From an uncultured Chloroflexia bacterium (lineage in GTDB: Bacteria > Chloroflexota > Limnocylindria > Limnocylindrales > CSP1-4), in the NCBI GenBank assembly GCA_963746845.1, contig CAVVCZ010000004.1, positions 800,001 to 864,000 of the forward strand: a stretch of 64,000 bases of DNA, in the 5' to 3' direction. Of this stretch, positions 25,889-36,435 are shown in pieces. The notes under the pieces were generated by a model that was not told the DNA's origin, searched no databases, and saw only the letters and a program-made list of their open reading frames with translations. Each line of letters begins with the position of its first letter. Position 1 is the stretch's first letter. Both the position numbers and the translations under genes were made by a program.

Positions 25889-27556
25889 TCAGACCTCGAC
25901 CACGACCGGGAAGACCATCGGTCGCCGCTTCGTCTGCTCGTACAGGTAGCGCGACACGCCGTCCTTGATCTGGCTCTTCAGCAGCGCGATCTCGCTGATG
26001 TGGTCGCCCGGGTTCTGGATCGAGGTCAGGATCCGCTCGATCGCCTCGCCCATCATCGGGTCCTGCTCGTTCTGATGGACGAAGCCGCGTGTGATGATCT
26101 CGGGCCGGCCGACCACGTTCCCGGTCTGCTTGTCGACCGTGACGACGACCATGAACATCCCGTCGTTGGCGAGCGCCCGGCGGTCGCGCAGGACGATCTC
26201 GCCGACCTCGCCGACCGACAGCCCGTCGACGAACACGTAGCCCGCCGGGACCGGCTGGCCGCGACGGGCCACGCCGTCCTGATCGATCTCGATCGGCTGG
26301 CCGTTCTCGATGATGAAGACGTTCTCGGGTGCGACCCCCGTCTCGATCGCGAGGCGGCCGTGCTGGACCTGCATCCGGAACTCGCCATGGATCGGGATGA
26401 AGTAGCGGGGCTTCGTCAGGCCGAGCATCAGCTTCAGCTCTTCCTGGCTCGCGTGGCCCGAGACGTGGGCCCGCTTGATCGTGTGGTAGTAGACATTGGC
26501 GCCGGCCTTGAACAGGTTGTCGATCGTCCGCGCGACGTACTCCTCGTTGCCCGGGATCGGGCTCGCGCTGACGATCACCGTGTCGCCCGGCTGGATCTCG
26601 ACGAACCGATGGTCGCGGTTGGCCATCCGGGCCAGACCGGACATCGGCTCGCCCTGGGCGCCGGTCGTCGCGATGACGAGCTTGTCGTCCGGAACCTCGT
26701 TGATCTTGTCCTTGGCGACCATCCGGGACGGCTCGTAGGTCAGGTAGCCGAGGTCCGTGGCGATGCGGGTGTTCTGCTCCATCGATCGGCCGATGACCGC
26801 GACCTTGCGGTCGAACTGGGCCGCCGCGTCGATCACCTGCTGGATCCGGGCGATGTTGCTCGCGAAGGTCGCGACGATCACCCGGCCGTCGAGCGGCTCC
26901 ATGATCTCGCGGAAGGCCTCGCCGACGGTCCGCTCCGACGGGGTGTAGCCCGGGTTCTCCGCACGGGTCGAGTCGGACAGCAGGCAGATGACGCCCTCCG
27001 CGCCCATCTTCGCGAGGATCGCGAAGTCGGACAGCTTGCCGTCGACCGGGGTGTGATCGAACTTGAAGTCGCCCGTGTGGACGACGACGCCGACCGGTGT
27101 CCGGAGGGCGATCCCCATCGCGTCCGGGATCGAGTGGCCGATCCGGAAGGCCACGACCCCGAACGGCCCGATCTGGATCTCGTCGCCGGGCTCGAGCGCC
27201 AGGAGCGGGTTGTTGTGGAGCTTGTGCTCCTTGATCTTGTTGCCGAGCAGGCCGCGGGCGAGGGTCGAGGCGTAGATCGGGACGCCCGGGAACTCCGGGA
27301 GCACGTACGGCAACCCGCCGACATGGTCCTCGTGGGCGTGGGTGATGAGGAACGCCCGGACGTTCGCCTTCCGTTCCTTCAGGTAGGTGATATCGGGCAC
27401 GACGAGGTCGATCCCGAACATCTCCTCGTCGGGGAACATCAGCCCGCAGTCGATCACGACGATGTCGTCGCCGTACTCGAACACGTACATGTTCTTGCCG
27501 ATCTCACCGACGCCGCCGAGCGGGATGATCCGGAGGATCGGGTTGGGTGTGGGCAT
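25889..27556 (-). CDS. rnj: ribonuclease J
   Basis: GGVGEIGKN, THAHEDH, HTGDFK, HVSGH, RRPMVFP. Confidence 0.97.
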   Translation of the reverse strand: MPTPNPILRIIPLGGVGEIGKNMYVFEYGDDIVVIDCGLMFPDEEMFGIDLVVPDITYLKERKANVRAFLITHAHEDHVGGLPYVLPEFPGVPIYASTLARGLLGNKIKEHKLHNNPLLALEPGDEIQIGPFGVVAFRIGHSIPDAMGIALRTPVGVVVHTGDFKFDHTPVDGKLSDFAILAKMGAEGVICLLSDSTRAENPGYTPSERTVGEAFREIMEPLDGRVIVATFASNIARIQQVIDAAAQFDRKVAVIGRSMEQNTRIATDLGYLTYEPSRMVAKDKINEVPDDKLVIATTGAQGEPMSGLARMANRDHRFVEIQPGDTVIVSASPIPGNEEYVARTIDNLFKAGANVYYHTIKRAHVSGHASQEELKLMLGLTKPRYFIPIHGEFRMQVQHGRLAIETGVAPENVFIIENGQPIEIDQDGVARRGQPVPAGYVFVDGLSVGEVGEIVLRDRRALANDGMFMVVVTVDKQTGNVVGRPEIITRGFVHQNEQDPMMGEAIERILTSIQNPGDHISEIALLKSQIKDGVSRYLYEQTKRRPMVFPVVVEV

Positions 27557-31398: not shown

Positions 31399-31614
31399 CG
31401 CGTGCGCCTCCGATTTCGATCAATTGACAGCGCAGACGACCTTATCCAATGCACTCGACCCATGTCCGGTCCGATCCGTGGCCCCGTGACTCGTCACGCG
31501 GCAGGTGGACACGGATTCGCCCGACCTGGGCGTCCGGCGAGTCGCTCACCTGGATCAGGCTCGCGTGGCCGTCGTTTGGCGAGGAGTCCGGATGGGCGAG
31601 CGCCCGGAATCGAA

Positions 31615-31639
31615 GAGCCGCCGGCGGTGCCGGCGGCTC
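31615..31639 (-). terminator. GC-rich hairpin downstream of pnp
   Basis: GAGCCGCCGGC-ggt-GCCGGCGGCTC perfect 11-bp inverted repeat, followed by UUCGAUU on the mRNA. Confidence 0.6.
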
Positions 31640-31661
31640 GGGTGCGGGAAACGAACGGGGA

Positions 31662-34253
31662 TCAGCTGCCGACCGGCTCCTTCGCCAGGTGCCGCTGCAT
31701 CGCCGCCTTGCGGGACAGGTTGACCCGGCCCTGGCGGTCGATCTCCATGACGACGACCATCACCTCGTCGCCGACGGACACGACGTCCTCGACGGTCGGC
31801 ACGTGGTAGTCGGCCAGCTCGCCGATCCGGACGAGGCCTTCCTTGCCCGGCAGGATCTCGACGAAGGCGCCGAAGCCCATGATCCGGGTGACCTTGCCCA
31901 GGTAGAGCGCCCCGACCTCGACCTCGCGGGTCAGGCTCTCGATCCACTGGATCGCCTTCCGAGCGTTCTCGCCGGACACGGCCGCGATCTCCACGGAGCC
32001 GTCGTCCTCGACGTTGATCTCGGTCTGGGTCTCCTCCTGGATCTTGCGGATCATCGAACCACCCTTGCCGATGATCTCGCGGATCTTCTCGGGGTTGATC
32101 TTGATCGTGGTGATGCGCGGCGCGAAGTCGCTCATCTGGCCACGGGACTCGGGCATGACCTCGACCATCTTGTCGAGGATCTGGAGGCGTGCGTCGAGGG
32201 CCTGCTTCAGGCCGTCGCGGATGATCGCCTCGTTGATGCCCTGGACCTTGATGTCCATCTGGAGGGCGGTGATCCCGTCGCGGGTCCCGGTGACCTTGAA
32301 GTCCATGTCACCGACCGAGTCCTCCTTGCCGAGGATGTCGGTCAGGACGACGAACCGGCCGTCGGGCTCGCTGATCAGGCCCATTGCCGCGCCGGCGACC
32401 GGAGCCGTGATCGGGACGCCCGCGTCCATGAGGGCGAGCGTCGAGCCGCACGTCGAGGCCATCGAGGTCGAGCCGTTCGAGGACATGCACTCCGACACGA
32501 GCCGGATGACGTACGGGAACTCGTCATGGGGCGGGAGCACCGGAATCAGCGCCCGCTCGGCGAGGTTGCCGTGGCCGATGTCCCGGCGGCTCGGGCCGCG
32601 CATGGGCTTGTTCTCGCCCGTGGAATAGGGCGGGAAGTTGTAGTGGTGGATGTACTGCTTCTCGGTCTTCGGGCTGATCGTGTCGATCCGCTGGACGTCC
32701 GAGGACGAGCCCAGCGTCGCGATCGTCATGACCTGCGTCTCGCCGCGGGTGAAGAGGCCGGAGCCGTGGGCGCGCGGCAGCAGGCCGACCTCGACCGAGA
32801 TCGGGCGGAGCTCCGTCGTCCCGCGTCCGTCCATCCGGATCCCCTCGTCGAGGGCCAGGGCGCGACACGTCTTCTTGAAGACGAGGTTGTAGAGGCTCTT
32901 GCTGACGCGGGCCTTGCGGCGCGCGGCATCGAGCTTCGTCTTCGCCTCGTCCTTGGAGGTCCGGTTGGCCCGGACGGAGTCGGCGATGTCGTTCTTCAGC
33001 GTCGCGATCCGGCCCGGCAGGTCGTTCGCGAACCAGATCAGCAGGTTGGCGGTCGCCTCGGCGTCCGGCAGCGCGCGGTGGTTCTGGGTCAGGTCGACCC
33101 CGAAGAACGCCGCGAGCGTGTCGAGCTTGTAGTTCTGGAGGTCCGGATAGCCCTCGCGGGCGATCGTCAGCGTGTCCAGGAACCGGCCCGCATCGTAGTG
33201 CGCGGCGCTCCCGCCCGCCTCCTCGAGGAAGCCGAGGTCGAACGTGACGCTGTGGCCGACGACGAGCGCGTCACCGATGAAGTCGACGGCCTGCCTGGCC
33301 GCCTCCGCCGGCGACGGCGCCTTCGCGACGTCCTTGTCGGTGATGCCGTGCATCTGGTTGCCGAGGATCGGCTGCGACGGCTTGACGAACGTCGACCAGC
33401 GGTCGGTGATCTTGCCGCCCTTGACCTTGACGACGCCGATCTCGAGGAGATCCGACATCTTCGGGTCCGTGCCGGTCGTCTCGACGTCGACGATCGCGAA
33501 CTCGCGCTTGGCGTCGACGGCGGCGACGAAGTCGAGGACCGAGCCCGTGCCCGGCTCGAGCGACGGCGTGAGCTTGGGCTTGCCGACGGCCTCGCGGAGC
33601 TGCTCCTGGATGTCGATGAGCGGCTGGAGCGCGCGGTGGCCGAACAGGATCGCCTCGGCCATGACGTCCTCGGGCAGGAGCTTGGCGCCCGCCTCGACCA
33701 TCATGATCGCGTCGCGCGTGCCGGAGACGATCAGGTCGAGCTCGGACTCCTCGACCTCGCTGTAGGTCGGGTTGACGACGAACTCGCCGTTGATCCGGCC
33801 GATCCGCACGGCGCCCACGGGCCCGGCGAAGGGGATCTCGCTGATCGACAGCGCGGCCGACGCGGCGACGGTCCCGATCACGTCGGGCTCGTTCTCCTGG
33901 TCGGTCGAGAGGACCGTGATGACCAGCTGGATGTCGTCCTTGTACCCCTCGGGGAACAGCGGCCGGATCGGGCGGTCGGTCAGCCGGGCGGCGAGCGTCG
34001 CGGCCTCGGAGGCGCGCGCCTCGCGCTTGATGAAGCCGCCCGGGATCTTGCCCGCGGCGTACATCCGCTCCTCGAACTCGACCGTGAGCGGGAAGAAGTC
34101 GAGGCCCGGGCGCGGGTCGGACCGGTTGGCCGTCCCGAGGACCAGGGTGTCGCCGTAGCGGACGGTGACCGCGCCGCCGGCGAGTCGGGCGAGCTTGCCC
34201 GTCTCGATGGTCAGGGTGCGACCACCGATCTGTGTCTCGAATGTCTGAGACAA
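31662..34253 (-). CDS. pnp: polyribonucleotide nucleotidyltransferase with inserted DEDDh exonuclease domain
   Basis: RNase PH1, DEDDh insert (aa ~251-412), PH2 (TRGETQ, RRDIGHG, SNGST, EDSVGDMDFK), KH (IIGKGG), S1; follows rpsO; TTG start with AGGAGG. Confidence 0.95.
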   Translation of the reverse strand: MSQTFETQIGGRTLTIETGKLARLAGGAVTVRYGDTLVLGTANRSDPRPGLDFFPLTVEFEERMYAAGKIPGGFIKREARASEAATLAARLTDRPIRPLFPEGYKDDIQLVITVLSTDQENEPDVIGTVAASAALSISEIPFAGPVGAVRIGRINGEFVVNPTYSEVEESELDLIVSGTRDAIMMVEAGAKLLPEDVMAEAILFGHRALQPLIDIQEQLREAVGKPKLTPSLEPGTGSVLDFVAAVDAKREFAIVDVETTGTDPKMSDLLEIGVVKVKGGKITDRWSTFVKPSQPILGNQMHGITDKDVAKAPSPAEAARQAVDFIGDALVVGHSVTFDLGFLEEAGGSAAHYDAGRFLDTLTIAREGYPDLQNYKLDTLAAFFGVDLTQNHRALPDAEATANLLIWFANDLPGRIATLKNDIADSVRANRTSKDEAKTKLDAARRKARVSKSLYNLVFKKTCRALALDEGIRMDGRGTTELRPISVEVGLLPRAHGSGLFTRGETQVMTIATLGSSSDVQRIDTISPKTEKQYIHHYNFPPYSTGENKPMRGPSRRDIGHGNLAERALIPVLPPHDEFPYVIRLVSECMSSNGSTSMASTCGSTLALMDAGVPITAPVAGAAMGLISEPDGRFVVLTDILGKEDSVGDMDFKVTGTRDGITALQMDIKVQGINEAIIRDGLKQALDARLQILDKMVEVMPESRGQMSDFAPRITTIKINPEKIREIIGKGGSMIRKIQEETQTEINVEDDGSVEIAAVSGENARKAIQWIESLTREVEVGALYLGKVTRIMGFGAFVEILPGKEGLVRIGELADYHVPTVEDVVSVGDEVMVVVMEIDRQGRVNLSRKAAMQRHLAKEPVGS

Positions 34254-34261
34254 GGGAATGT

Positions 34262-34286
34262 TCCTCCTTCGGTCGTCGAAGGAGGA
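34262..34286 (-). promoter_or_regulatory. hairpin sequestering pnp Shine-Dalgarno
   Basis: mRNA UCCUCCUUCG-acgac-CGAAGGAGGA, perfect 10 bp. Confidence 0.65.
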
Positions 34287-34333
34287 CCTGTGGCGCGCCG
34301 GCTAGCGCGACCAATTCGGCGTCTGACGCGACG

Positions 34334-34356
34334 GGGCCCCGGAATGACCGGGGCCC
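34334..34356 (-). terminator. hairpin after rpsO (terminator or processing site)
   Basis: GGGCCCCGG-aatga-CCGGGGCCC 9-bp stem; no strong U-tract. Confidence 0.45.
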
Positions 34357-34369
34357 ACGGCGGCGGAAC

Positions 34370-34639
34370 CTAGCGGCGGAGTCCGAGCCGTCCGATGACG
34401 GCGCGGTAGCGCGTGTTGTCCTTCTTGATCAGATACGCAAGAAGACGACGGCGCTGGCCGACGAGCTTGAGGAGGCCGCGTCGCGAATGGTTGTCCTTGG
34501 GAAAGCTCCGGAGATGCTCGGTCAGCCCCTTGATCCGCTCCGTCAGGAGCGCGATCTGGACCTCCGGCGAACCGGTGTCACCGTCCTTGGTGGCGTACCC
34601 GGTGATGATCTCCTGCTTTGCTTCCCGCGCGAGCGGCAC
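34370..34639 (-). CDS. rpsO: 30S ribosomal protein S15
   Basis: [23 protein letters not shown]. Confidence 0.98.
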
Positions 34640-34751: not shown

Positions 34752-35498
34752 CTACTCCGGCGCGCCACCGAATGTGAGGCGGACCGGGCCCTCGGTCGAT
34801 CCCGCCGGCAGCCGGACGCCGTCCGCGCCGACCTCGAGACGAGACGGGGACGTCTCATACGAGCCGGCGGGCGGGAGCGCGACCGGCATCGGGAAGGACA
34901 GGCGGCCGCCTCCGTCGACGACGCCCGTGACGGCATACGGCCGGCCGAGCAGGCGCTCTGCGGCCGCCATGTCCCCGGCTGCGATCGCGGCGCGGATGTC
35001 GGACGAGCGGACCTCGCGCCCGTCGAGCGAGAACGGCGGCACCACGACGACCTCGAACCCGTCGGTCCGGCCGAGCGAGGCGAGCGTCTCCGGCGTGCCG
35101 CCGCGGTCATGTCCGAACGCCGCGTCCGGCGTCATCACGAAGCCCGCGAGCCGGCAGCGATCCTCGATCCCGCGCACGAACGCGTCATACGGCGTGAGCC
35201 TGAGGTCCTCGTCGAAGTGCTCGATCACGACGACCTCCACGCCGAGCGCGGCCAGCCGCTCGAGCCGCTCGGTCGGATCCATCAGGAGCGGCGGCGCATG
35301 GCCGAGCAGCACCGCGTCCGGGTGGGCATCGAAGGTGATCACCGCGGGACGGGCGCCGCGCCCTCGGGCCTCCCGGACCAGGTGGTCGACGAGCCAGGCG
35401 TGGCCCCGATGGAGCCCGTCGAAGACGCCGACCGCGACAAGGAGCGAGCCGTCGTCCGCCGAGAGCTCGCGCCGGCCGTGGACCGTGCGGACGGTCAC
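34752..35498 (-). CDS. ribF: FAD synthetase (RibF N-terminal FMN adenylyltransferase; kinase domain degenerate)
   Basis: GVFDGLHRGH, TFDAHP, SSDIR, LLGRPY; only ~60 aa follow, lacking PTAN. Confidence 0.8.
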   Translation of the reverse strand: MTVRTVHGRRELSADDGSLLVAVGVFDGLHRGHAWLVDHLVREARGRGARPAVITFDAHPDAVLLGHAPPLLMDPTERLERLAALGVEVVVIEHFDEDLRLTPYDAFVRGIEDRCRLAGFVMTPDAAFGHDRGGTPETLASLGRTDGFEVVVVPPFSLDGREVRSSDIRAAIAAGDMAAAERLLGRPYAVTGVVDGGGRLSFPMPVALPPAGSYETSPSRLEVGADGVRLPAGSTEGPVRLTFGGAPE

Positions 35499-35499
35499 G

Positions 35500-36418
35500 T
35501 CAGGACGCCTCGCCGGCGTCGATCAGCACCTTGTCGGGGGCCAGCTTCGTCCCGTCCAGCCGCGCGATCGCGAGCAGCCGGCCGGACCCGTCAACGAGAC
35601 GGATCGGGTCGTCCGGCGCCAGGGTCCCCACGCCCGCCGGGACCCCGATCGGCTGGCCGCGCCCGATCGCCACCACCGCCGCGTCCGGGACCGTGACGGT
35701 GGGAAGGTCCAGTCCGGCATCGATCGGCCGAAGCAGGGCCTCGACCGCCTCCGGGCCATCGGCTGCCGCCACGCGTACGGCGTCGAGATCCGTCGCCTCG
35801 GCGAGCTCGAACGGCCCGCTCGCCGTTCGCACGAGCGCCCCGAGGTACGCGGCGCTGCCGACCGCCTCCCCGAGATCGCGTGCGAGCGAGCGGACATACG
35901 TGCCGGCGGAGCACGTGACGTCGACGATCGCGACCGGCTCGCCGGGCGTCGTCTCGTCCCAGCTCACGAGGTCCAGGGCGTCGATCGTCACCGCGCGTGG
36001 AGCCAGCTCGACCGCCTGACCGGCCCGGGCCAGCGCGTACGCGCGCCGACCGGCCACCTTGATCGCGCTGTACGCCGGCGGACGCTGCTCGATCGGCCCG
36101 CGGAACCGCGCGAACGCCGTCTCGACGGTCTCGCGCGCGGGCGACGGGCCGGTGACGGGCGTCAGCGCCCCCTCGAGATCGTCGGTGGTCGACGAGGCCC
36201 CGAAGCAGACCGTCGCGCGGTAGCGCTTGCGGTCGCCGAGGTGGTACTCGACGAGGCGGGTCGCCTTGCCGAGGAACACCGGTAGGACTCCGCTCGCGAA
36301 CGGATCCAGCGTTCCGCCATGACCGACCCGCTTCGTCGCGCTCAGGCGCCGGACGAGGCCCGACGACGTCGTGGGACGTCGGGCCGACGGGCTTGGCGAC
36401 GACGAGGATGCCGTCCAT
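35500..36418 (-). CDS. truB: tRNA pseudouridine(55) synthase with apparent +1 frameshift at ~36359-36361
   Basis: MDGILVVAKPVGPTSHDVV in one frame continues as GLVRRLSATKRVGHGGTLDPFASGVL in another; PPAYSAIK, CSAGTYVRS. Confidence 0.9.
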
Positions 36419-36435
36419 GGACGCGGGGCGGACGC

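Follow-up and report, generated by a model that had tools for sequence, protein, structure and literature searches.

PNPase is among the most studied RNA-decay enzymes and, to our knowledge, its domain plan is taken as fixed from bacteria to human mitochondria. In the genome of an uncultured Chloroflexia bacterium from the class Limnocylindria (GCA_963746845.1), the pnp gene of contig CAVVCZ010000004.1 departs from this plan, carrying a DEDDh 3'-5' exonuclease domain between its two RNase PH domains. This locus raises the questions of whether the gene is sound, where the additional domain belongs and how widely it occurs, and what a second nuclease could do inside PNPase. We analyzed a window of 64,000 nucleotides, the whole stretch of DNA containing the gene, and its relevant features are given in Table 1.

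Table 1. Features of the rpsO-pnp region, with positions in the window and the evidence for each
Feature	Positions	Strand	Evidence
pnp CDS, 863 aa plus stop, PNPase with nested DEDDh	31662..34253	(-)	ORF list, TIGR03591, Pfam
S1 domain, aa 778-849	31707..31922	(-)	PF00575 E 7.2e-17
KH domain, aa 713-772	31938..32117	(-)	PF00013 E 9.2e-11
RNase PH domain 2, aa 473-700, phosphorolytic site	32154..32837	(-)	alignment to 7ogk
Post-insert helical segment, aa 411-472, remainder of helical domain	32838..33023	(-)	AF2, TIGR03591
Nested DEDDh 3'-5' exonuclease domain, aa 251-410	33024..33503	(-)	PF00929, motifs
Pre-insert linker, aa 228-250, N-terminal piece of split helical domain	33504..33572	(-)	AF2, sister-clade PNPase alignment
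RNase PH domain 1 and RNase_PH_C, aa 1-227	33573..34253	(-)	Pfam; aligns to 5yjj residues 18-237
rpsO-pnp spacer	34254..34369	(-)	RNA fold and sequence
rpsO (ribosomal protein S15), directly upstream of pnp	34370..34639	(-)	TIGR00952 124 bits vs cut-off 63.65

The pnp gene and its locus

The gene is one uninterrupted ORF with a TTG start, and a Shine-Dalgarno sequence (GGAGGA) is found 8 nt upstream of the start, at 34262-34267. With a single ORF of 863 aa and rpsO as its direct upstream neighbor, the description given in an earlier note on this DNA, of an unbroken pnp at the rpsO-pnp locus, holds. The predicted RNA fold of the spacer has a GC-rich hairpin 3' of rpsO and a separate 10-bp hairpin that pairs the pnp Shine-Dalgarno sequence, and its energy of -63.7 kcal/mol (z -4.13) was equaled by 0 of 200 shuffles. 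In 300-nt windows, the GC content of the insert is 0.67-0.70, against 0.63-0.73 for the entire pnp. Another neighbor of pnp, truB, is divided over two frames.

The genome assembly has 12 contigs and is 92% complete. The earlier note had proposed to look for reads across both junctions of the insert, and each is spanned by contigs of other runs, with at least 31 nt on either side. Among the 32 contig pieces shown, those that cover a given junction belong to a single DNA run and a single RNA-library run: two pieces of DNA run X2 and two of RNA-library run X3 at aa 250/251, and one piece of DNA run X1 (1 mismatch) and two of RNA-library run X7 at aa 410/411. Contigs at least 99% alike to the pnp stretch are present in the tested soil and ice metagenome runs. 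Among the joints listed for the 32 pieces, none omits the insert. The 12 listed skips measure 71-157 nt, each occurring in one metagenome contig with a short side of 21-49 nt and 88% likeness; we treated them as belonging to other organisms, and none of them removes the insert. Both PF00929 and PF01138 were found in all of the best 120 protein clusters listed from other assemblies, and 40 of 41 relatives have the fusion architecture. An artefact of assembly or annotation (a chimeric contig, or two genes read through) is extremely improbable, being refuted, as far as sequence data reach, by the same architecture in other assemblies, the stop-free frame and the bridged junctions.

The PNPase part

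TIGR03591 matches the protein with 940.9 bits (cut-off 525.05) in two stretches divided by the insert, the profile positions from 263 on aligning from aa 425. Pfam recognizes two RNase_PH and two RNase_PH_C domains, RNase_T (PF00929), KH_1 and S1, so the scan with the RNase_PH, PF00929, KH and S1 models that had been suggested at the outset gave matches for all of them. The RMDGR motif of PH2 begins at aa 473. Aligned to 7ogk, the protein has D645, D651 and K653 at the places of E. coli D486, D492 and K494, for which a metal-binding catalytic role is described in PMC2723993. These three metal ligands are invariant across 70 PNPases, and the best Foldseek matches are all PNPases. The first reading of PH2, KH and S1 as intact is borne out by the retained metal ligands and by the Pfam matches to KH and S1. 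Judged by these alignments, the 863-aa protein is a real PNPase whose phosphorolytic center is conserved.

The nested DEDDh domain

PF00929 matches from aa 254 to 405, over positions 2-164 of its 164-position profile, and the score of 93.6 bits (E 2.5e-26) is above the cut-off of 24; the earlier note had placed the domain at 33018-33503, which corresponds to aa 251-412. The motifs DVETTG, HGIT, GHSVTFD and HRALPDA start at aa 256, 302, 333 and 392, respectively, in agreement with the residue numbers of the earlier note. The catalytic residues are D256/E258 (ExoI), D339 (ExoII) and H392/D397 (ExoIII), an assignment that we take to follow the general pattern of DEDDh motifs, together with the alignment to PolC 2p1j. 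The complete motif set claimed from the letters alone is thus confirmed by PF00929 and the alignment, and it is conserved: none of the 98 full-length fusions compared, family f4 included (we code the families of the class, after GTDB, as f1 to f5), deviates at D256, E258, D339, H392 or D397, or at the flanking motif residues T260, H302, G303, H334 and R393.

Outside these residues, the domain is more divergent. Between f1 and f4, identity is 41-42% in the DEDDh domain and 63-76% in the PH cores. In two within-genus pairs, with pairs near saturation (dS 0.5-1.8) left aside, dN/dS was 0.13 and 0.16 for the DEDDh part and 0.05-0.07 for the PH domains. By these ratios, the domain is shown to be under purifying selection. 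It is very probably catalytic, an activity that we infer from sequence conservation.

The insertion site

According to the earlier note, the exonuclease supplants the greater part of the PNPase helical domain. This did not survive the comparison: ordinary sister-clade PNPases (open frames of 737-749 aa) match aa 5-244 and 453-852 of the query, the alignment with 5yjj, a solved PNPase, covers aa 3-222 and 454-852, and the AF2 model (pLDDT 90.9, pTM 0.83) has helices at 237-247, 394-429, 434-448 and 452-470. A replacement is ruled out by these alignments and by the modeled helices on both sides. The DEDDh domain instead interrupts the helical domain, as a net gain of about 160 aa with helices left on either side. 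PF03726, the Pfam model of the helical domain, has no match at E 0.01 in the 863-aa protein. In the model, the ExoIII helix continues into the helical domain as a single 36-residue helix (aa 394-429), which suggests a rigid mount and not a loose tether.

In canonical PNPase, according to PMC2723993, KH/S1 and the helical domain are on opposite faces of the ring; the helical domain lines a side pore to the active site and is proposed to govern the access of NDP and phosphate to that site. The same source presents it as the most variable part of PNPase, partly disordered in E. coli. Another long PNPase (P0155) has about 150 residues without domain assignment at the same place, which suggests that this site tolerates insertions.

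Affiliation and origin of the insert

The best solved relatives of the insert are PolC 2p1j (E 1.3e-24), PolC 9qpc (3.5e-21) and DinG 8zef (1.5e-18). At E 0.001 there are 11 solved matches, which comprise PolC, DinG, Cas2-DEDDh, DnaQ/epsilon, ExoX and one titled exodeoxyribonuclease III; no structure of RNase T or Orn is among them. Of the 68 NCBIfam families matched, the top 25 comprise models of PNPase, DEDD/PolC/DinG/epsilon, Rrp41 and S1; the highest-ranking exonuclease model in these 25 is PRK07883 (DEDD-GIY-YIG-UVR, Cho-like). Cho-like domains, 44-45% identical to the insert, are the closest non-PNPase sequences found, and the N-terminal domains of sister-clade DinG proteins show 35-41% identity. 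On these matches, the insert is a member of the PolC/DinG/epsilon (DNA-proofreading) branch of DEDDh domains, not of the RNase T/Orn branch.

In the DEDDh tree, from which two of three standalone DEDDh loci of f2 were left out, the inserts form one clade (support 97/95), which falls together with domains of the DinG and Cho types (81/72). In the unconstrained tree, the DinG domains of their own class are not their sister group, although a clade joining both was not rejected by the AU test (p-AU 0.21). In the tree of the PNPase core, built from 35 of 70 rows, the fusion proteins are likewise united (100/99), with the ordinary PNPases of f3 and f5 as their sister group. The two topologies fit a single gain of the insertion in the ancestor of the clade formed by f1, f2 and f4.

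Distribution in Limnocylindria and beyond

From one draw of 151 genomes of the class, the junction-spanning fusion was found in f1 (43 of 44 genomes, plus 1 partial), f2 (6 of 6) and f4 (48 of 50, plus 1 partial). It is retained in 16 of 16 f2 genomes of about 1.0-1.4 Mb, and the insertion occupies one exact site in every genome of the fusion clade with a complete gene. By its presence in the genes compared, the fusion marks one clade of three families (f1, f2 and f4); the question of whether it is clade-wide, raised at the outset, is answered affirmatively at this level. A class-wide fusion is ruled out, since PNPase is ordinary in 5 of 5 genomes examined from f3 and f5, and the DEDDh matches of these families lie N-terminally in DinG-type frames of 890-1041 aa at 9 of 9 loci. 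One of these frames contains RNase_T, DEAD and Helicase_C_2 by Pfam. Relatives with ordinary pnp, which the earlier note would have taken as a sign of misassembly, do exist in f3 and f5, but they are no evidence of it because they belong to the sister clade.

PF13307, the DinG-type helicase domain, is present in 47 of 49 genomes of f3 and in the single genome of f5. It was found in 1 of 44 genomes of f1, in a different frame of 2041 aa, in 0 of 6 of f2 and in 1 of 50 of f4, there in a 107-aa fragment at a contig end. According to these profile counts, the fusion clade lost DEDDh-DinG and the sister clade keeps DEDDh on a DinG helicase. The junction query, of which the DEDDh domain is a part, was left unmatched at E 1e-12 in 48 of 301 sampled Chloroflexota genomes, so a loss of DEDDh-DinG need not be a rare event.

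Outside the class, 6 of 6 loci examined are DinG-type or Cho-like. No independent fusion turned up in the sequences compared: the best 150 of 55,067 representative matches held one full-length fusion cluster (P0122) and fragments. PF00929 was found in none of the nine scanned proteins from the 10 listed with at least 899 aa (P0270 and those of 820-851 aa lay outside the scan). We found no published description of a PNPase with a nested DEDDh domain in the literature, supplementary files being outside the scope, and to this extent the view of the architecture as undescribed stands; its sequences, however, are already in public databases under automatic names. What is new, on the genomes compared, is that the fusion is confined to one clade of three families, with a sister clade having an ordinary PNPase and DEDDh-DinG.

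Other nucleases of the genome

As to the nucleases that the earlier note proposed to look for, no orn, rnt or dnaQ was found in this 92% complete genome, and the sole match to PF00929 is that of pnp. PF01612 (RNase D-type), RNB and RNase E/G had no matches in the genome, where RNase J and RNase Y are present. There is no PF13307 either, and six DinG-type proteins used in tblastn match only the exonuclease part of pnp. None of the 151 genomes of the class gave a match to RNB (RNase R/II), which therefore does not help to tell fusion from non-fusion clades. Since the sister clade also lacks RNB and has an ordinary PNPase, the absence of RNase R alone does not explain the insert. Three genes upstream of pnp, in the same cluster, there is an NrnA-like DHH gene, whose product may already cover the finishing of oligonucleotides.

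Comparison with known systems

Canonical PNPases (TIGR03591; 5yjj, 7ogk/3gcm from E. coli, 4aim from C. crescentus, 8zaw) have the same order of PH1, linker, PH2, KH and S1, and the PH2-KH-S1 part is highly identical to that of the solved enzymes, with E down to 1e-147. They have roughly 700-750 aa and no nested DEDDh, whereas the fusion has 863 aa. PolC has a DEDDh domain nested within a larger enzyme, and its structures (T. maritima 2p1j; 9qpc) are the best solved sequence matches to the insert, but its host is a DNA polymerase, with the primer 3' end as substrate, unrelated to RNA decay. Cas2-DEDDh (8fy9) and the Cho-like PRK07883 proteins share the DEDDh lineage of the module and are terminal fusions with other partners. 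DEDDh-DinG, known from S. aureus (8zef) and B. subtilis (PMC12525004), has a homologous exonuclease domain with the same motifs and is apparently the one DEDDh protein of most sister-clade genomes. There the DEDDh domain is N-terminal and joined to a helicase; here it is internal, with no helicase domain and an RNA phosphorylase as host.

The pairing of a PH ring with a DEDD nuclease is itself not new. The eukaryotic exosome combines a PH ring with Rrp6, which like RNase D is DEDDy, and REXO2/Orn is a dimeric nanoRNase. PNPase occurs with RNase D in the Caulobacter degradosome, as reported in PMC4245959, and human mitochondrial PNPase-SUV3 with REXO2, as reported in PMC7261184. All of these likewise join a PH or PH-like ring to a hydrolytic DEDD 3' exonuclease, but as separate polypeptides, while here the link is covalent, 1:1, and the nuclease comes from the DNA-proofreading branch. 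In the exosome, Rrp6 and Rrp44 are separate and docked; the fusion has a nested domain of the same chain, and the likeness is functional only. With a phosphorolytic ring and a hydrolytic DEDDh site in one polypeptide, the fusion is a natural experiment on the pairing of PH rings with DEDD nucleases.

Possible function of the fusion

DEDDh sites use two metals and water and release NMPs, and the RNase PH2 site depends on phosphate and releases NDPs. We tentatively prefer, just short of calling it probable, the reading in which the DEDDh domain acts alongside PNPase on RNA as a hydrolytic 3' exonuclease, and place it ahead of a DinG-like role. One chain, that of a working PNPase of the trimeric type, would hold two 3'-to-5' exonuclease chemistries, phosphorolytic in PH2 and hydrolytic in DEDDh, the latter acting independently of phosphate in RNA 3'-end decay. 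Trimming or finishing of single-stranded 3' ends and short products would require no phosphate at this site, and the trimer would show three hydrolytic sites on the face opposite KH/S1. We infer both this position of the domain in the trimer and RNA as its substrate, and the "one-chain exosome" imagined in the earlier note could be such a mechanism. The lineage offers a background in which RNase R/II, RNase D, RNase T and Orn are not detectable. Against this, the nearest relatives of the insert are DNA-directed nucleases (PolC, DinG, Cho-like, epsilon, ExoX), an affiliation that weakens the idea of nanoRNA finishing. The NrnA-like gene, a candidate nanoRNase in the same cluster, weakens it as well, and the loss of DEDDh-DinG in the fusion clade points to a role on DNA or R-loops.

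The domain could accordingly be read as a re-housed DinG nuclease for DNA and R-loops, with the KH/S1 ring of PNPase as a binding platform replacing the lost helicase. We regard this as somewhat unlikely. The fusion and the DinG helicase are complementary across the families of the 151 genomes, the tblastn matches are restricted to the exonuclease part of pnp, and the insert groups with DinG and Cho types in a tree where the AU test leaves room for a DinG origin. According to PMC12525004, the exonuclease of B. subtilis DinG clears R-loops and digests ssDNA as well as the RNA strand in hybrids, activities that would suit this role. However, the complementarity amounts to one evolutionary event on one branch and may be a coincidence, in particular with the junction query unmatched in part of the Chloroflexota. 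The free tree does not join the inserts to the DinG domains of the class, and both the host protein and the locus belong to RNA decay.

PNPase also has a debated role in DNA repair. A bolder version, which we consider rather unlikely, is that the single DEDDh nuclease of the cell shifted from DinG to PNPase and the helicase was discarded, giving a helicase-free surveyor of 3' ends and R-loops. If so, an RNA 3' tail caught by the KH/S1 ring would be degraded phosphorolytically, and the hydrolytic domain, on the other side of the ring, would clear RNA that is paired to DNA or trim DNA 3' ends. PNPase would then take a direct part in resolving replication-transcription conflicts. That one clade has its DEDDh domain in PNPase and the other on DinG is also relevant to two debated matters, what PNPase does in DNA repair and what DinG nucleases do in the removal of R-loops.

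Returning to a working exonuclease in general, it is improbable that the domain is a passenger, that is, an active general 3' exonuclease expressed or stabilized within an abundant housekeeping protein and uncoupled from phosphorolysis. Both identity and dN/dS show the domain to be evolving more rapidly than the PH cores, it occupies the part of PNPase that varies most and is partly disordered in E. coli (PMC2723993), and P0155 is longer at that site too. Yet one exact site is kept in all complete genes of the fusion clade, including those of 1-Mb genomes, and the model predicts the continuous helix running from the exonuclease into the helical domain.

More improbable still is a non-catalytic module serving as a lid or sensor of the pore, or as a surface binding a partner or a nucleotide. 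The gating of NDP and phosphate proposed for the helical domain (PMC2723993) would agree with it, but five catalytic residues and their flanking residues invariant in 98 of 98 fusions would not be expected for a purely structural domain. A single recombinant protein and two point mutants of it would suffice for a direct test of the function of the fusion.

The pnp gene and its reading frame

The pnp gene lies in its usual cluster (NrnA-like DHH protein, truB, ribF, rpsO, pnp), with a GGAGGA Shine-Dalgarno sequence 8 nt upstream of its start. In the HMM scan proposed by the earlier note, Pfam reports two copies each of RNase_PH and RNase_PH_C, along with KH and S1. The two PH halves are separated by RNase_T (PF00929) at aa 254-405 (profile positions 2-164 of 164; 93.6 bits, E 2.5e-26). 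The PNPase equivalog TIGR03591 (NCBIfam; cut-off 525) reaches 940.9 bits and matches in two stretches, the second being aa 425-850 (profile positions 263-688). GC content is even through the insert.

Features in and around pnp (window positions)
Feature	Position	Strand	Remarks
RNase J	~25901-27532	minus	TIGR00649, 611.7 bits; ~4 kb from pnp
Open frame antisense to pnp	31449-34373	plus	974 aa; rejected as a gene
pnp ORF	31662-34253	minus	863 aa, uninterrupted, TTG start
DEDDh insert of pnp	33018-33503		aa 251-412
rpsO-pnp spacer	34254-34369	minus	strong fold, -63.7 kcal/mol, z -4.13
ribF ORF	34752-35498	minus	248 aa
truB, split over two frames	36200-36430	minus	shift near 36350-36360

Contigs of four public sequencing runs were matched to the locus at a likeness of at least 88% (32 of 1980 pieces listed), and bridging was taken as at least 31 nt on each side of a junction. 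Among the listed pieces, the aa 250/251 junction is bridged by two contigs of DNA run X2 and two of RNA library X3, and the aa 410/411 junction by one contig of DNA run X1 (489 nt, 1 mismatch) and two of RNA library X7. None of the listed joints removes the insert. The earlier note had called for read mapping across both junctions, and contigs of these runs span both; those from RNA libraries are no proof of transcription. We have little doubt that the architecture is real.

Insertion into the helical domain

The earlier note had the DEDDh domain standing in place of most of the PNPase helical domain, but the evidence points to an insertion instead. The solved PNPase 5yjj matches aa 3-222 and 454-852, with a gap of 231 residues here versus 74 in 5yjj, and ordinary PNPases of sister families (open frames of 737-749 aa) match aa 5-244 and 453-852. 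In the alignment, the linker has about 84 residues in ordinary enzymes versus 23 + 160 + 62 in the fusion. An AlphaFold2 model built on A1, a 70-sequence PNPase alignment, is confident (mean pLDDT 90.9, pTM 0.83), and its top Foldseek matches are PNPases only. It predicts a helix ahead of the DEDDh domain (237-247) and a 36-residue helix (394-429) that begins as the ExoIII helix and continues to further helices (434-448, 452-470). Since the alignments flank the insert and modelled helices lie on both sides of it, the helical domain is predicted to be split by the insert, whose C-terminal join looks rigid in the model.

Catalytic centres and type of the DEDDh domain

We aligned 98 full-length fusions: 92 matches of 845-880 aa, the window's protein and 5 ORFs from loci of the fusion-carrying families f1, f2 and f4 of the class Limnocylindria. 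The DEDDh motifs occur at the residues reported earlier, and D256, E258, D339, H392 and D397 are invariant in all sequences; the f4 domains have only 41-42% identity to the window's. By Nei-Gojobori, dN/dS is 0.13 and 0.16 in the DEDDh part and 0.05-0.07 in PH1 and PH2, figures that rest on two congeners (dS 0.22-0.31), the rows of loci L024 and L026 being near saturation and that of L025 invalid. D645, D651 and K653, invariant across A1, align with D486, D492 and K494 of E. coli PNPase, Mn ligands of the phosphorolytic site according to the available text of PMC2723993. Judging from the residues, both catalytic centres look intact, and the DEDDh domain is very likely an active 3'-5' exonuclease.

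The top NCBIfam exonuclease models for the insert are the DEDD-domain protein PRK07883, PolC, DinG and epsilon. Among solved structures, 11 sequences matched aa 228-472 at E 0.001: PolC exonuclease 2p1j (1.3e-24), PolC 9qpc, S. aureus DinG 8zef (1.5e-18), Cas2-DEDDh, DnaQ/epsilon, ExoX and one entry titled exodeoxyribonuclease III were found, with RNase T and oligoribonuclease absent from the 11. Since the matches are of PolC, DinG and epsilon type without these two, the insert is assigned by similarity to the proofreading/DinG branch. In a tree of 40 DEDDh domains, the 7 PNPase inserts form one clade (97/95) within the DinG-/Cho-type group (81/72), not adjoining the class's own DinG domains; forcing the two to be sisters cost 11.2 log-likelihood units and was not rejected (p-AU 0.21).

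Distribution and history of the fusion

Of 7999 candidates scored with a 266-aa junction query (aa 215-480), 1387 proteins matched at E 0.001. All 120 clusters listed contain PF00929 and PF01138. Fusion proteins thus already have public database entries, with names assigned automatically; the named ones among the listed clusters come from Limnocylindrales or Chloroflexota assemblies and are called, for example, 'polyribonucleotide nucleotidyltransferase' or 'DNA polymerase III epsilon family exonuclease'. The earlier note knew of no description of this architecture, and searches in the main text of openly accessible papers turned up no account of a PNPase that carries a DEDD domain.

Among relatives, 40 of 41 genomes matched the query, the one miss being 58% complete. 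We then drew 151 genomes of the class, counting as full the matches that span both junctions (frames of ~860-1050 aa), and searched them for the DinG-type helicase domain PF13307.

Fusion and DinG-type helicase domain in families of Limnocylindria
Family	Full junction-spanning match	Exonuclease core match only	PF13307
f1	43/44 (1 partial)		1/44 (unrelated 2041-aa frame)
f2	6/6		0/6
f4	48/50 (1 partial, 1 none)		1/50 (107-aa contig-end piece)
f3		46/49	47/49 (same frames as DEDDh)
f5		1/1	1/1

All 5 fetched fusion loci gave end-to-end identity in BLAST. In the sister families f3 and f5, the exonuclease domain stands at the N-terminus of 890-1041-aa frames at 9 of 9 loci (BLAST), one of them resolved by Pfam as RNase_T, DEAD and Helicase_C_2, a DinG-type protein. 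The PNPase is ordinary in the 5 f3/f5 genomes examined, and the clade-wide occurrence that the earlier note asked about holds nearly throughout f1, f2 and f4 but not in f3 and f5. The 301 Chloroflexota genomes drawn from outside the class yielded exonuclease-core matches only; the loci examined there were DinG-type or Cho-like (6/6), and a 677-aa protein of another class combines RNase_T, GIY-YIG and UVR (Pfam). In an exhaustive search of 1.84 billion representatives, the best 150 hits include a single full-length fusion, cluster P0122, besides fragments, and none of 9 scanned PNPases of at least 899 aa (9 of 10 listed) has a DEDDh domain. The genome tallies include some flagged as unpublished (G010; G102, G122, G126, G131, G140, G146, G157; G314, G339, G387, G426), without which the patterns are unchanged (e.g. 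f4 full matches 45/47, f3 PF13307 43/45).

In a PNPase-core tree (35 of the 70 A1 rows, insert columns taken out), the class's PNPases group together (95/95) and divide in two, with the fusion clade on one side (100/99) and the ordinary PNPases of f3 and f5, together with protein P0127, on the other (100/99); all outgroups are ordinary. The simplest reading of this topology is that the fusion arose a single time, in the ancestor of its clade.

In the 899-aa PNPase P0155 of the representative library, PH1 ends at 208 and the PNPase helical domain covers 368-445; the stretch separating them includes ~150 residues that Pfam leaves unassigned. They lie at or near the fusion's DEDDh site and may represent a second, different insertion at a permissive site. 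The f2 genomes (G025-G040, e.g. locus L035), of 1.0-1.4 Mb, retain the fusion; most of them also contain, in open frames of 184-328 aa, a further DEDDh match that is weak (28-34% identity) and has no counterpart in the window's genome.

Possible function

With six DinG-/Cho-type proteins as tblastn queries, the window's genome yielded only the exonuclease part in pnp and one GIY-YIG/UVR-like locus. From this and the PF13307 counts, the DEDDh carrier within the class is either DinG or PNPase, a swap that is a single evolutionary event and not a statistic. In the same genome (92% complete), a check for other DEDDh genes (orn, rnt, dnaQ) found PF00929 solely in pnp, and PF01612 (RNase D/PolA exonuclease), RNB (also 0/151 in the class) and RNase E/G gave no match. 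RNase Y, two DHH proteins (the NrnA-like one beside truB) and two large PHP-domain polymerases are present.

In E. coli PNPase, S1/KH and the helical domain occupy opposite faces of the ring, and the helical domain helps to form a pore that offers another way into the active site, believed to be used by NDP and phosphate (PMC2723993, available text). Three hydrolytic DEDDh sites would then sit on the helical-domain face of the trimer. We tentatively suggest a role in RNA decay with PNPase, as phosphate-independent trimming of 3' ends or short products, a reading with somewhat less than even chances. We count toward it that the lineage is without detectable RNase R/II, D, T and Orn; non-covalent precedents are, in the portions available, the Caulobacter degradosome with RNase D (PMC4245959) and human PNPase with REXO2 (PMC7261184). 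Less likely, the domain would be a DinG nuclease moved to a new host protein, acting on R-loop RNA and the 3' ends of ssDNA. In favor of this stand its kinship to DinG-type domains, the swap within the class and the activity of B. subtilis DinG, whose nuclease breaks down ssDNA as well as the RNA strand of hybrids (PMC12525004, available text). RNA decay and this second role are not mutually exclusive.

Neighboring elements

The antisense frame, low-complexity and rich in Arg, Asp and Leu as is typical of high-GC antisense frames, is not counted as a gene. In truB, one frame encodes the first 20 N-terminal residues (MDGILVVAKPVGPTSHDVVG) and another the remainder (LVRRLSATKRVGHGGTLDP...), the TIGR00431 match to the downstream ORF beginning only at profile position 47; either an assembly error or a genuine frameshift may lie behind this. 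Of the 290-326 positions of the RibF models, the ribF ORF covers only the first ~200. We take this portion to be the FAD-synthetase half, so that a riboflavin-kinase half appears to be absent or encoded elsewhere. In the rpsO-pnp spacer, a 10-bp hairpin pairs an upstream anti-SD with the pnp Shine-Dalgarno, and a similar one was found upstream of pnp in 2 of 10 folded relatives, loci L026 (f1) and L028 (f5, ordinary pnp). The hairpin may thus serve to control pnp translation.
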